A DNA stretch of 64,000 nucleotides. It comes from Escherichia coli (GTDB taxonomy: Bacteria; Pseudomonadota; Gammaproteobacteria; Enterobacterales; Enterobacteriaceae). Made by a program: the position numbers. This document shows, piece after piece, positions 1-6,000 of the stretch (positions are counted from its first letter, which is position 1; every line of letters begins with the position of its first letter). The stretch lies in the NCBI RefSeq assembly GCF_044324785.1, contig NZ_CP172127.1. One strand, written 5' to 3'.

Positions 1-3000
1 TATACCGTACCAGGTAAATAAGTCCGTTGGTTCACTTTTCCCGCTCTCATCGAACTCCGTTACCGTATGTCTGAGTTTGTGTGATATTTTATCGAAGATA
101 AAACTTGGATCTTCATCATATATTTCTTTTATTGCGCTGAAGATCATTTTCTTGTTATTGATATCATTAGTATTCTCTACTACATTTTCATTGATGATGG
201 TTTGGCCGACTTTTTTGTTTTCATCGTTCGCAGGTGATTTTGTTGGTTCTTGATTATAGATACCACTAGTAATATCGGCTGTATCATTGGAGTCAATAGC
301 ATCCTCATTACCACTAACAACACTACTACCATCAGTAAATTCAGCATTATTTATATCATCATGAGTCTTTTCAATTATGTTGTCATTAATGATAGTACGG
401 ACGAGTTCTTTGTCTTTATAGCTCGCAAGTAATTTTATTGTTTCTTGGTTATCGATACCAATAGCAATATAGTCTGTATCATTGGAGCCAATATCAATAT
501 AAGTAACTGAGGAATTATTAATATTAAATCTATCAGGATTGTCGTTTCCTCGTATGGCGTTTTTTATAAGCGCAAGTAGATGTTTAACACAGGTGCTTAT
601 TCCTTCCTTACCATTAAAAAGGTTTTTGAGCTCTTGTACTAATCCATTAACTTCATCATTGTTATTTTCATTGATGGATTCTGTGTAAGCTGCGCTGGTA
701 TTGTTGATTGAAATAGATGGTAGCATGATTTTATTCCATGTTGATTGATTTGTCACAAATATATATTACCTAATAAAATAGACTATCAAAAAACGCTCAT
801 TTATTTAGACCCTATCTTTAATTTGAGTGTATGAGCGCACAATAGCCAAGGGGGGGGGAGTATCCTGGAAATTCAGAAATGTAAACTCTTTGAGAAGGAC
901 GAGCAGAATGCCTGAAAATATGCCTTTCCCTTCAGGTTTGTCTGTGGATAACGCTTAATGATTTGAAAGGGCAAGCTGCCATCAGGCTGTTTGCAAAACT
1001 CAGGAGGCAAGCAATGAGGAAACAACTTTCGTTGAAGTGTGGGAGTTAAAGTCACCTGCATAGCAGGTGACTTTATCCAGGCGAACGCGTTATCAGAACG
1101 CGTAGTTAAAGTTAGTACCGAACAGCCAGGCTTTACCTTCTGACTCGAAGGAATAAGCTGCCGGTCCTTCACCTTCAGTAAACTTCACATTCTGACCGTG
1201 CATATAAGATGCACCAACGTCAATGGATGCATCTTCATTAAATGCGTAGGTTAACCCAGCACTTAACCACAAGCGATCCTGGTCAGGAATAGAAATAGAA
1301 CGTTTATCGGCCGGAACTGGGCTATCGTCATAGGCGATACCGGTACGGAAGGTCCAGTTTTTATCGTAATAGTAGGTTGTACCCAACGCGATACGATATG
1401 CGTCACGGAATCCTTCATCTTTATAGAACAGAGTCTGACCACTATCGCCTTTCGCTTTCAACTCCTGGAACTGGCTCCAACTGGTATAGGCCATGCTGTA
1501 GTGAATTGCCCACTGTGGCGCAACACGGTTATAACCAGAAATCTCCCACATCTCAGGTAAATTCAGCGTCAAGGACCCATTTTGGGTTGCACCCATTGTG
1601 CCATACGGTAAACCCATGCTACCCAAAATGTTGTTCAGATTTGGGTTAATGGAACTTTTGTAATCCCCTTCGAAGTCGATTTTAACTTCAGAACGATAGG
1701 TTAGGCCCCAACGGTTGTCTTTATCCAGTTCATAAAGAATACCCGCGTTCCAGCCAAAGCCCCATTCGTCACCTTTCAGATGAGCAATTTGAGAGTCCGG
1801 GGTATTAATACCATTGGTTAGTGAAGCGGGTACACCTTGGGCAATCAACTGTTGAGACAACAAAGGCCCCAGCGAACCGGCGTAACGCTCAATTTTTGCC
1901 TTAGCGTATACAGCATCAAAACCAAGACCAAAACTCCAGCTATTGTTAAGGCGATAGGCTCCGCTAAGGTTAAGGTTGATTGTTTGCAGATCGGTTTTAC
2001 CGCCATAGATTCCAGCAGCGTAGTTATCATTAAATTCCGTGGCCAGACCATAGTTCGAGGTAATAGAAGCCCCCCAACCAAACTGATCGTTAATAGGTGC
2101 TACGAAATGTAGATTAGGTACCCACGCAGTTGGTGCAATATTATCTGCATCAGCACGCTGGCCCGTTAAATCGGAACGCCCAGAAATATCTACATCCGGA
2201 TCAATATAAACCGCACCCGCAGAAAATGTCGGGCGGTCAAACATGGTAATCAATGCGGGGTTACGGCTAACGTTACCTGCATCATCGGCAATTGCACCTT
2301 CCCCTGAATAAGCCCGGCCCAGGCCAGAGGAAGAAAATTCGTTTAACTGAAAGCCTGCCGACCAGGCCTGGGTGGAGATAAGTGCCACTGCGACTGCGAG
2401 AGCAGACTTTGTAAACAGGGTTTTCTGGCTCATGACCATAACCTCAATGATTTATTTTTATACAAACTATGTTACGTGCTGTAACAGGAGCGCGAAGTGT
2501 AGGGTCTGAGGTACATCTTAGAAATCAGACCAGTGGCGAGAGTATAGGTCGGACCAGCTGGAATGTTGCAAGTATGTTTCTATCTTTTTTCAAATATGAT
2601 CTAAGAAACGCGATCCAGCTGGCAAAATTTGGAGGTGGCGCACTCATGGATTCGGGTGAATTTTGTTTTAGATCATTTTTAAGTGTGATTTCGGTCACTT
2701 ATCCGATTTTGCAGAATTAACAACTGGAGCAGCACTTTCCGGAAGCGTAAAATATCCACAACGTTTATCTGGCACCTTGGGTGCACATACAGAGGAAATC
2801 AACGATGAGTAAATGTAGTGCTGATGAAACCCCGGTTTGCTGCTGTATGGATGTTGGCACCATTATGGACAACTCCGACTGCACCGCGTCTTACAGCCGC
2901 GTGTTTGCAAACCGCGCAGAAGCAGAACAAACGCTGGCGGCGCTGACTGAAAAAGCCCGTAGCGTGGAATCCGAACCGTGCAAAATCACCCCGACTTTCA

Positions 3001-6000
3001 CTGAAGAGTCTGACGGTGTGCGCCTGGATATCGATTTCACTTTTGCCTGCGAAGCTGAAATGCTGATCTTCCAGCTGGGTCTGCGTTAATTCCTCTCGGG
3101 TGCGTACGCCCCTGTCAGTTGTTGGCAGGGGCGTTTTATTTTCTCTTCTACTTTTCTCTCTGTGTCATAGCTCCCACTTTCCCTTTTCTCCACTTGGCTA
3201 AATGTAAAAAAATGGTTAAGACTATGATCAGGTCAGACCACTTTATTTATTATTTTACAGGGGAGTGTTATGGGTCAGGTTTTACCGCTGGTTACCCGCC
3301 AGGGCGATCGTATCGCCATTGTTAGCGGTTTACGTACGCCTTTTGCCCGCCAGGCGACGGCTTTTCATGGCATTCCCGCGGTTGATTTAGGGAAGATGGT
3401 GGTAGGCGAACTGCTGGCACGCGGCGAAATTCCCGCCGAAGTGATTGAACAACTGGTCTTTGGTCAGGTCGTACAAATGCCGGAAGCCCCCAACATTGCG
3501 CGTGAAATTGTTCTCGGCACCGGAATGAATGTGCATACCGATGCTTACAGCGTCAGCCGCGCTTGCGCTACCAGTTTCCAGGCGGTTGCAAACGTCGCAG
3601 AAAGCCTGATGGCGGGAACTATTCGCGCGGGGATTGCCGGTGGGGCCGATTCCTCTTCCGTATTGCCAATTGGCGTCAGTAAAAAACTGGCGCGCGTGCT
3701 GGTTGATGTCAACAAAGCTCGAACCATGAGCCAGCGCCTGAAACTCTTCTCTCGCCTGCGTTTGCGCGACTTAATGCCCGTACCGCCTGCGGTAGCAGAA
3801 TATTCTACTGGCTTACGGATGGGCGACACCGCCGAACAAATGGCGAAAACCTACGGTATTACTCGCGAACAGCAAGATGCATTAGCGCACCGTTCGCATC
3901 AGCGAGCCGCTCAGGCCTGGTCAGACGGTAAACTCAAAGAAGAGGTGATGACTGCCTTTATCCCTCCTTATAAACAACCGCTTGCCGAAGACAACAATAT
4001 TCGCGGTAATTCCTCGCTTGCTGATTACGCAAAGTTGCGTCCGGCGTTTGATCGTAAACACGGGACGGTAACGGCAGCAAACAGTACGCCGCTGACCGAT
4101 GGCGCAGCGGCGGTGATCCTGATGACCGAATCGCGGGCGAAAGAATTAGGGCTGGTACCGCTGGGGTATCTGCGCAGTTACGCATTTACTGCGATAGATG
4201 TCTGGCAGGACATGTTGCTCGGTCCGGCCTGGTCAACGCCGCTGGCGCTGGAACGTGCCGGTTTGACAATGAGCGATCTGACATTGATCGATATGCACGA
4301 AGCCTTTGCAGCTCAGACACTGGCGAATATTCAGTTGCTGGGTAGCGAACGTTTTGCTCGTGATGTACTGGGGCGTGCACATGCCACTGGCGAAGTGGAC
4401 GATAGCAAATTTAACGTGCTTGGCGGTTCGATTGCTTACGGGCATCCCTTCGCGGCGACCGGCGCGCGGATGATTACCCAGACATTGCATGAACTTCGCC
4501 GTCGCGGCGGTGGATTTGGATTAGTGACCGCCTGTGCTGCGGGTGGGCTTGGCGCGGCAATGGTTGTGGAGGCGGAATAATGGAAATGGCATCAGCGTTT
4601 ACCCTTAATGTCCGTCTGGACAACATTGCTGTTATCACCATCGACGTACCGGGTGAGAAAATGAATACCCTGAAGGCGGAGTTTGCCTCGCAGGTGCGCG
4701 CCATTATTAAACAACTCCGCGAAAATAAAGATCTGCGCGGTGTGGTGTTTATCTCCGCGAAACCGGACAACTTTATCGCTGGTGCAGACATCAACATGAT
4801 CGGCAACTGCAAAACGGCGCAAGAAGCGGAAGCACTGGCGCGGCAGGGTCAACAGTTAATGGCGGAGATTCATGCTTTGCCCGTTCCGGTTATCGCGGCT
4901 ATTCATGGCGCTTGCCTGGGCGGTGGGCTGGAGTTGGCGCTGGCGTGCCACGGTCGCGTGTGTACTGATGATCCTAAAACGGTGCTCGGTTTGCCTGAAG
5001 TACAACTTGGATTAATACCCGGTTCAGGCGGCACCCAGCGTTTACCGCGCCTGATAGGTGTCAGCACAGCATTAGAGATGATCCTCACTGGAAAACAACT
5101 TCGGGCGAAACAGGCATTAAAGCTGGGGCTGGTGGATGACGTCGTTCCGCAATCAATTTTACTGGAAGCCGCTGTTGAGCTGGCAAAGCAGGATCGTCCA
5201 TCTTCACGCCCTCTACCTGTACGCGAGCGTATTCTGGCGGGGCCGTTAGGTCGTGCGCTGCTGTTCAAAATGGTCGGCAAGAAAACAGAACACAAAACTC
5301 AGGGTAACTATCCGGCGACAGAACGCATCCTGGAGGTTGTCGAAACGGGATTAGCGCAGGGCACCAGTAGCGGCTATGACGCTGAAGCCCGTGCTTTTGG
5401 CGAACTGGCGATGACGCCGCAATCGCAGGCGCTGCGTAGTATCTTTTTTGCCAGTACGGACGTGAAGAAAGATCCTGGCAGTGATGCGCCGCCTGCGCCA
5501 TTAAACAGCGTGGGAATTTTAGGTGGTGGCTTGATGGGCGGCGGTATTGCTTACGTCACTGCTTGTAAAGCGGGGCTTCCGGTCAGAATTAAAGATATCA
5601 ACCCGCAGGGCATAAATCATGCGCTGAAGTACAGTTGGGATCAGCTGGAGGGCAAAGTTCGCCGTCGTCATCTCAAAGCCAGCGAACGTGACAGACAGCT
5701 GGCATTAATCTCCGGAACGACGGACTATCGCGGCTTTGCCCATCGCGATCTGATTATTGAAGCGGTGTTTGAAAATCTCGAATTAAAACAACAGATGGTG
5801 GCGGAAGTGGAGAAAAATTGCGCCGCTCATACCATCTTTGCTTCGAACACGTCATCTTTACCGATTGGCGATATCGCCGCTCACGCCGCGCGACCTGAGC
5901 AAGTTATTGGCCTGCATTTCTTCAGTCCGGTGGAAAAAATGCCGCTGGTGGAGATTATTCCTCATGCGGGGACATCGGCGCAAACCATCGCTACCACAGT

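Follow-up and report, generated by a model that had tools for sequence, protein, structure and literature searches.

Position and regulation of the small gene yfcZ between the FadR-controlled promoters of fadL and fadIJ in Escherichia coli

The small gene yfcZ of Escherichia coli lies between fadL and fadIJ in the 64,000-nucleotide stretch of contig NZ_CP172127.1 that was analysed here and is called the window throughout. An initial annotation had read its position between two FadR-controlled promoter regions as a sign of a link to fatty acid uptake or anaerobic beta-oxidation. Taken as a whole, the locus is probably best explained by three separate transcription units, with yfcZ outside the direct control of FadR and with fadL as its true link. 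In this explanation FadR would repress fadL from two operators over its -10 and +1 and fadIJ via a single operator just upstream of fadI. The gene yfcZ would form a one-gene unit with its own promoter (-10 at 2748-2753, start near 2760) and its own terminator, a strong intrinsic one that would insulate it from fadIJ. Two sites of the CRP/FNR family, 22 bp apart, would sit at about -69 and -91 of the predicted yfcZ start; the yfcZ promoter would be used more without oxygen, the fadL and fadI promoters more with oxygen. The genes fadL and yfcZ would thus be a divergent pair; in Enterobacteriaceae the control region between their promoters has a constant length and holds the CRP/FNR module midway.

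Results

Promoter occupancy with and without oxygen

Of 5426 complete E. coli genomes, 5425 matched the segment 2300-3400 of the window at a minimum of 95% identity, and RefSeq calls fadL, yfcZ and fadI there. Positions 2297-2926 were identical base for base to E. coli K-12 MG1655. The spacer being identical, experimental data obtained with K-12 therefore apply to the window. To convert the coordinates of the sigma70 chromatin immunoprecipitation sequencing (ChIP-seq) study of Myers 2013, a PdhR motif listed in that coordinate system and the current annotation of K-12 served as anchors. Three distinct sigma70 peaks fell at about window positions 3199 (fadI), 2770 (yfcZ) and 2494 (fadL). The reads under aerobic versus anaerobic conditions were 113.9 versus 7.8 for fadI, 149.6 versus 5.3 for fadL and 59.7 versus 303.4 for yfcZ (Myers 2013). 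According to these counts, sigma70 occupancy without oxygen was 5-fold up at yfcZ and 15- to 28-fold down at fadL and fadI. There are three separate promoters, of which the one of yfcZ prefers anaerobic growth and those of fadL and fadI aerobic growth. Published sigma70 occupancy thus spoke against common FadR control. With an oxygen response opposite to that of its neighbours, yfcZ is not to be presumed a fad gene.

In the same study an FNR peak was located in the fadL-yfcZ spacer, at about window 2608-2662, and was called by three ChIP-seq peak callers as well as by ChIP with microarray detection (ChIP-chip); yfcZ was given as its estimated target (Myers 2013). In a culture of strain O157:H7 at oxygen exhaustion, the yfcZ mRNA was 8-fold up and clustered with pflB, yfiD, nrdD and adhE.

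The control region between fadL and yfcZ

A set of 81 distinct fadL-yfcZ spacers from several genera was aligned for footprinting; the genome scan returned only Enterobacteriaceae, at identities of at least 82%. On the yfcZ side the conserved blocks were TTGTTTTAGATCATTTTTAA (2663-2682), a CRP site, ACTGGAG (2723-2729), GCGTAAAATA (2745-2754), TGGCACC..GTGC (2770-2784) and the Shine-Dalgarno sequence. The predicted sigma70 -10 of yfcZ, TAAAAT at 2748-2753 (plus strand), lies within GCGTAAAATA, which is among the best-conserved blocks of the spacer, and would place the start near 2760. The conserved CRP site TGTGATTTCGGTCACT (2684-2699) has one mismatch to the consensus. Its centre at 2691.5 corresponds to -157.5 from the fadL start and to about -68.5 from the predicted yfcZ start. 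CRP-cAMP has been shown to bind upstream of fadL, with the centre of the site 157 bp from the start, and the position was called atypical and beyond RNA polymerase contact (Feng and Cronan 2012). A site puzzlingly far from fadL would hence be at a normal distance from the predicted yfcZ promoter. An FNR-like palindrome, TTGTTTTAGATCAT at 2663-2676, agrees in 8 of 10 positions with TTGAT-N4-ATCAA, falls inside the conserved block 2663-2682 and is centred 22 bp from the CRP site; we infer that these are the bases contacted by FNR.

In all 75 spacers compared, OL1, one of the two FadR operators of fadL, is 145 bp away from the CRP centre. TAAAAT follows this centre at 56 bp in 72 of the 75 and at 57 bp in the other 3. 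The CRP site thus keeps an invariant distance to both promoters, yet the stretch 2627-2662 varies in sequence. Nearby lengths were variable, with 47-86 bp for the yfcZ leader and 161-192 bp for the yfcZ-fadI spacer. Because the spacing is fixed despite a free sequence at 2627-2662, the region from promoter to promoter would be one spatially constrained unit. The alignment suggests a spacing or phasing constraint on 2534-2760 which seems to be undescribed so far. An Rfam scan of 2300-3400 revealed no known RNA element, only a chance match to Spot 42 with 20.8 bits versus a threshold of 80 bits.

FadR operators of fadL and fadIJ

The window was scanned with the FadR consensus 17-mer ANCTGGTCNGACNTNTT, the core of which is the 9-mer TGGTCNGAC. 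Operator OL2 of fadL (CACTGGTCTGATTTCTA, 2519-2535, minus strand) has three mismatches and, with the fadL start at 2534, spans -1 to +16. Operator OL1 (AGCTGGTCCGACCTATA, 2543-2559, minus strand) has a single mismatch and spans -9 to -25, over the fadL -10 TATACT (2541-2546). The fadIJ operator (ATCAGGTCAGACCACTT, 3227-3243) is palindromic with two mismatches and is located 27-43 bp upstream of the fadI ATG. The core was exact at OL1 and at the fadI site and had one mismatch at OL2. The FadR operator-like sequences that had been noted upstream of fadL and fadIJ are therefore the published operators, and they are conserved in about 80 Enterobacteriaceae. The fadL start was mapped to what is here window position 2534, 95 bp ahead of the ATG, with two FadR sites a few bp apart that both bound FadR in electrophoretic mobility shift assays; long-chain acyl-CoA releases FadR (Feng and Cronan 2012). 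A 2022 review describes the FadR site of fadIJ as overlapping the start site, states that fatty acids induce fadIJ via FadR, and explains the repression of fad targets by a covering of -10/+1. An overlap of operator and repressed -10/+1 follows for fadL from the published start, and for fadI it is as stated in that review.

Within 2560-3226 the scan revealed no further match to the FadR consensus at up to three mismatches. The operators nearest to the predicted yfcZ start have their centres some 209 and 233 bp upstream and 475 bp downstream of it, the last one past the yfcZ terminator. Membership in the FadR regulon would imply an operator at or near the gene's own promoter, and yfcZ has none there. 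Since the operators are about 210-235 bp upstream or beyond the terminator, and since the oxygen response is opposite, yfcZ is unlikely to be under direct FadR control; this rests on the predicted geometry together with the oxygen data. The position of yfcZ between two FadR-controlled promoters does not imply control by FadR, as the initial annotation had supposed, since the operators sit on the fadL -10/+1 or past the terminator.

With up to two mismatches, consensus matches occurred in the whole window at three loci only, the promoters of fadL, fadI and fabB. Four such matches were found versus 0.94 expected, and four or more were reached in 5 of 100 shuffles. The core TGGTCNGAC was present in 8 copies versus 1.34 expected. 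Copies elsewhere lie in coding sequence at 1433-1441 (fadL), 3918-3926 (fadI), 25423, 27497, 28118 and 48954. Conservation was examined for the fadL and fadI coding copies, the other four being outside the compared loci. The former two were rejected as operators since they are not conserved beyond E. coli/Escherichia, and therefore only the promoter copies count. The core was kept at the OL1 and fadI-site positions in nearly all of 80 Enterobacteriaceae loci, OL2 was conserved across the 81 spacers, and TCAGGTCAGACCACT at the fadIJ operator was conserved in the alignment. As evidence for candidate operators, such conservation is stronger than match counts.

The conserved block ATGTTGCAA (2563-2580, minus strand) contains the fadL -35 TTGCAA (2566-2571) and overlapping TGTT direct repeats 11 bp apart. 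These repeats are a probable ArcA site, as an ArcA site has been placed 5 bp from FadR site 1 (Feng and Cronan).

The match in front of fabB, GGCTGATCGGACTTGTT at 22064-22080, has two mismatches and is located 67 bp upstream of the fabB start (open reading frame 22147-23367). The gene fabB is a known FadR target, with FadR as activator.

Genes of the locus and the yfcZ terminator

As the initial annotation had stated, yfcZ is a gene with a product of 94 aa between fadL and fadIJ. It occupies 2805-3089 on the plus strand, with the Shine-Dalgarno sequence GAGGAA at 2792-2797, and encodes a member of the DUF406 (YfcZ/YiiS) family. All elements listed in that annotation were present, exactly or within a few bases of the positions given. 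On the minus strand, fadL spans 1093-2439 in our list of open reading frames (Pfam Toluene_X, E 5e-162) and is also annotated by RefSeq, with the start at 2433. On the plus strand, fadI (3270-4580) and fadJ (4580-6724) encode the second beta-oxidation complex.

The terminator-like hairpin reported after yfcZ was borne out as a strong intrinsic terminator (3106-3143, plus strand), in which a G+C-rich stem of 12-13 bp (3106-3117 with 3123-3134) is followed by TTTTATTTT. The hairpin had a folding energy of -23.9 kcal/mol and a z score of -4.2. A comparable G+C-rich hairpin directly after the yfcZ stop codon was present in every other genus inspected, with different sequences and with T tracts of variable quality, so that the structure is kept across genera. 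The fadI operator follows about 90 bp past this terminator. About 60 bp ahead of the FadR operator of fadI, at 3161-3176, there is a partly conserved CRP-like site, TGTGTCATAGCTCCCA, with two mismatches; the CRP site which the 2022 review mentions in the fadIJ promoter is probably this one. The same review places fadIJ at the fadL locus and does not mention yfcZ.

The fadL coding sequence (1093-2200) is mosaic in Escherichia. The FadL protein of the window was about 97% identical to that of some E. coli and about 77% to that of others, and in one strain with a divergent FadL (loci L001, L002 and L005 compared) the promoter region and the 5' end were 99.9% identical to the window. Differences between the window fadL and K-12 were concentrated at 2139-2185. 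Selection on surface-loop variation is the likely cause of this mosaicism; FadL is annotated as the phage T2 receptor.

The leader element and other factors binding the spacer

The yfcZ leader contains at 2770-2785 (plus strand) the element TGGCACCTTGGGTGCA, which combines a sigma54-type -24/-12 match, with one mismatch to TGGCAC-N5-TTGCA, and a 5-bp hairpin (2772-2776 with 2780-2784). TGGCAC was kept in 69 of the 81 spacers and GTGC in 78, with a few compensatory variants of the stem. An RNA structure at 2772-2784 is not claimed, as the z score was -0.3 and compensatory changes occurred in few sequences only. In Shimada et al. 2021, RpoN holoenzyme and NtrC bind this spacer, with a peak in genomic systematic evolution of ligands by exponential enrichment (gSELEX) at about window position 2794 and with confirmation by gel shift. 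The same study reports that yfcZ and fadL mRNA were about 3-fold down on nitrogen depletion and classes the spacer as a 'repressive' RpoN site. For the element at 2770-2785, a blocking role as proposed by Shimada et al. fits better than a productive start.

A sigma54-like 16-mer nearly identical to TGGCACCTTGGGTGCA, TGGCACAATGGGTGCA, is found 1.2 kb away on the minus strand at 1588-1603 in the fadL coding sequence, where it encodes GTMGA; this likeness is probably due to chance. The leader also holds a dCas9 off-target site, ACCCA+AGG at 2775-2782, which explains the yfcZ silencing that has been reported.

Gene neighbourhood across bacteria

Grouped at 50% identity, the DUF406 family is a small one with 108 clusters, from a set of 1.84 billion representatives. 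The distant gene context was retrieved through 12 exact-protein look-ups, 11 of which gave DNA, several on contigs of at most 2.4 kb. In 6 of the 11 clusters the yfcZ homologue has a FadL-family gene no more than 4 kb away. The order fadL-yfcZ-fadI-fadJ was found in 80 of 80 Enterobacteriaceae loci and was complete in Morganella (61% identity to YfcZ), and a divergent fadL was seen in Proteus (60%) on a short contig. In Haemophilus influenzae (44%) and in a second, Pasteurellaceae-like lineage (P0148; 43%) a FadL-family gene is directly divergent across a spacer of about 200 bp; the other flank holds different genes in these two lineages, with neither fadI nor fadJ within 5 kb. In Agarivorans (48%) and Corallincola (44%) a FadL-family gene was found at 1.7 and 3.7 kb, respectively, with a pair of extracytoplasmic function (ECF) sigma and anti-sigma genes in between. 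With few such genes per 4-Mb genome, a FadL-family gene within 4 kb would be expected by chance in about 1% of cases, a rough estimate. Only in Enterobacterales (Morganella and Enterobacteriaceae) was fadIJ next to the yfcZ homologue. Judging from gene order, the conserved partner of yfcZ is fadL and not fadIJ, and the divergent pair appears to be kept far outside the enterobacteria. The suggested link to fatty acid metabolism is hence retained in part: the FadL-family neighbour is in favour of uptake, while anaerobic beta-oxidation via fadIJ loses its basis with a synteny restricted to Enterobacterales.

FadR-like sites in Morganella, Proteus and Agarivorans were always on the fadL side of the spacer, and no recognisable FadR site was present in the H. 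influenzae spacer. The 196-bp spacer of the Pasteurellaceae-like locus contains a single FadR-like site 79-95 bp from the ATG of the yfcZ homologue, a candidate that could serve both genes.

Among the H. influenzae loci (L084-L086, gene at 5001-5288), one copy of the DUF406 protein bears the GenBank name 'DNA mismatch repair protein' (EDJ91599.1). This odd name, a puzzle to the authors of the 2009 structural paper cited below, is probably explained by mutH two genes away. The neighbouring fadL homologue of L084 is broken into two parts without a gene call, and may be a pseudogene there.

The YfcZ protein

YfcZ matched Pfam DUF406 (PF04175) with 125.4 bits versus a cut-off of 25, residues 3-94 covering positions 1-91 of the 91-position model, and is related to YiiS (E 1e-16). 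In the AlphaFold model, residues 1-22 are disordered with a predicted local distance difference test score (pLDDT) below 50, and the core has a beta-alpha-beta-beta-alpha order with pLDDT above 90. The core shows the three-stranded antiparallel sheet with two helices of the solved DUF406 members. On this model YfcZ, small and cytoplasmic, would combine a ferredoxin-like core with an N-terminus that is disordered yet conserved and rich in cysteines. Among 31 diverse members the cysteines were conserved in 27 (C12), 27 (C82), 23 (C59), 21 (C13), 21 (C14) and 18 (C26) sequences. The unusual N-terminal CCC motif pointed out before corresponds to C12-C13-C14 and is real, although conserved only in part. 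C26, C59 and C82 directly precede strand 1, strand 2 and helix 2, respectively. The conserved, disordered and Cys/Asp-rich N-terminus beside a modelled cysteine pole suggests a site that becomes ordered upon binding of a metal or another ligand, and the chemistry of YfcZ is likeliest to be metal binding or thiol-based.

The nuclear magnetic resonance (NMR) study of YiiS and VPA0419 from 2009 described a monomeric alpha/beta fold with a disordered N-terminus. Apart from a ligand site that was only proposed, around a conserved glutamate that is E85 in YfcZ, it reported no function, and the samples contained 10 mM dithiothreitol and no transition metal. Papers published between 2009 and 2025 bear out the statement that yfcZ lacks an assigned function. 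YfcZ is conserved, well expressed and mainly gamma-proteobacterial.

Discussion

Several observations weigh against the proposed three-unit organisation with fadL as the partner of yfcZ. A search of the papers that mention yfcZ yielded no yfcZ data from a fadR mutant or from growth on oleate, and indirect effects of FadR are possible. In glucose minimal medium, no FNR-dependent change of yfcZ mRNA was seen, and yfcZ is absent from the wild-type aerobic/anaerobic list (Myers 2013). For class I activation, the centre of a CRP site would be near -61.5, -71.5, -82.5 or -92.5; with a start at 2760, itself a prediction, the centre at -68.5 is off the canonical -61.5/-71.5. In an lldR mutant, yfcZ mRNA falls together with that of fadL. 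The joint movement of yfcZ and fadL mRNA in the lldR mutant and under nitrogen limitation is a sign of some co-regulation through the shared spacer. In the protein, C26, C59 and C82 should gather at one pole of the modelled fold, a placement deduced from strand and sheet topology and not from distances. Two further points concern the link to fadL. The E. coli paralogue yiiS lies at another locus, and no fadL was found in the available DNA of 5 of the 11 clusters (Neisseria chenwenguii, Celerinatantimonas and three others), where three of the five loci were short (1.2-4.9 kb).

The latter two points also agree with a different explanation, in which the position of yfcZ has no functional meaning and a small conserved gene simply resides in an old syntenic block. 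Paralogues at other loci, which include two Vibrio proteins with solved structures besides YiiS, the opposite answer of yfcZ and fadL to oxygen, and the lack of any reported fatty acid phenotype of yfcZ in the literature found are all in line with it. This explanation does not account for a fadL/yfcZ pair that is kept in H. influenzae and the second Pasteurellaceae-like lineage though the other flank differs, for the recurrence of a FadL-family gene in Agarivorans and Corallincola at distances rarely expected by chance, or for an inter-promoter distance fixed in all 75 Enterobacteriaceae, even across a sequence-variable stretch. We regard it as possible but not probable.

Any role of YfcZ in the handling of fatty acids is a matter of inference. 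In the boldest form of such a role, YfcZ might be a cysteine-cluster protein which works with the FadL uptake route, binds a metal or carries a thiol-linked group (an acyl chain, for instance) and comes on once oxygen is exhausted, the spacer acting as a CRP/FNR switch. This proposal is speculative and, as a whole, rather unlikely to hold. If it were true, YfcZ would be on when the cell cannot burn the fatty acids it imports and has to handle them otherwise, the control region of fixed length would let a gene for aerobic and a gene for anaerobic use share one CRP/FNR module as a switch, and yfcZ would have been kept as divergent partner of fadL from enterobacteria to Haemophilus. Haemophilus is not known to have beta-oxidation.

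That yfcZ belongs to the FadR regulon via the fadL and/or fadI operators, or forms a read-through operon with fadIJ, and acts in uptake or anaerobic beta-oxidation, is improbable. Its co-orientation with fadIJ and the fixed gene order in Enterobacteriaceae and Morganella are compatible with this view. So is the binding of LldR and PdhR to the region, as both are GntR-family regulators with FadR-like sites, LldR binds FadR-like sites in vitro and yfcZ falls with fadL in the lldR mutant; the lone site of the Pasteurellaceae-like locus may be added. Against it stand operators that are either past the terminator or some 210-235 bp ahead of the predicted start of yfcZ, a repression mechanism which works by covering -10/+1 (2022 review), the strong hairpin kept after the yfcZ stop across genera, three distinct sigma70 peaks with opposite oxygen preference, and FadR-like sites that in Morganella, Proteus and Agarivorans are on the fadL side and in the H. 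influenzae spacer are not recognisable. In the gSELEX table for LldR (PMC10272880) the site listed for yfdY/lpxP of K-12, tAtaGGTCgGACCAgcT, reads exactly as the reverse complement of the OL1 entry for fadL two rows higher, which is either a true duplicate operator or a table error.

A working sigma54 promoter of yfcZ under nitrogen limitation at TGGCAC-N5-GTGCA (2770-2785) is highly improbable and was rejected on geometry and on the published effect: its near-consensus match, the widespread TGGCAC including two bases outside the hairpin, and the binding of RpoN holoenzyme and NtrC to this end of the spacer are outweighed by a start about 12 bp past the GC that would hit the Shine-Dalgarno sequence, 8-10 bp before the ATG, by the drop of yfcZ mRNA on nitrogen depletion at a site its authors call repressive, and by a few genera which delete the element or replace it with a different hairpin.

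Comparison with known systems

The operators, the genes and the protein family are already in the literature, and the observation of yfcZ between two FadR-controlled promoters itself adds nothing new. The sites in the window are the operators of the E. coli fad regulon (fadL OL1/OL2, fadIJ and fabB), with fadL positions that match the published start site; they do not differ from the known operators and were rediscovered here.

Shimada et al. 2021 list the fadL-yfcZ spacer among the repressive RpoN sites, and in terms of sequence this binding could plausibly be due to the -24/-12-like element at 2770-2785. The published peak has array resolution, the assignment to 2770-2785 comes from the present analysis, and the same bases form a small hairpin.

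Three DUF406 proteins have been solved, YiiS (PDB 2k3i), VPA0419 (2jz5) and VC_A0919 (2khd), the latter two from Vibrio. YfcZ has the full cysteine set C12-C14, C26, C59 and C82, whereas YiiS has one cysteine of the triplet and lacks C59.

The promoters malEp-malKp of E. coli are a divergent pair with a shared CRP control region that depends on its architecture. The fadL-yfcZ region resembles such pairs in its back-to-back promoters about 226 bp apart, its CRP-family sites midway and its invariant spacing. In contrast to the malEp-malKp type, the yfcZ and fadL promoters answer oxygen oppositely, only one CRP site is experimentally confirmed, and a shared higher-order complex would be proposed by analogy only.

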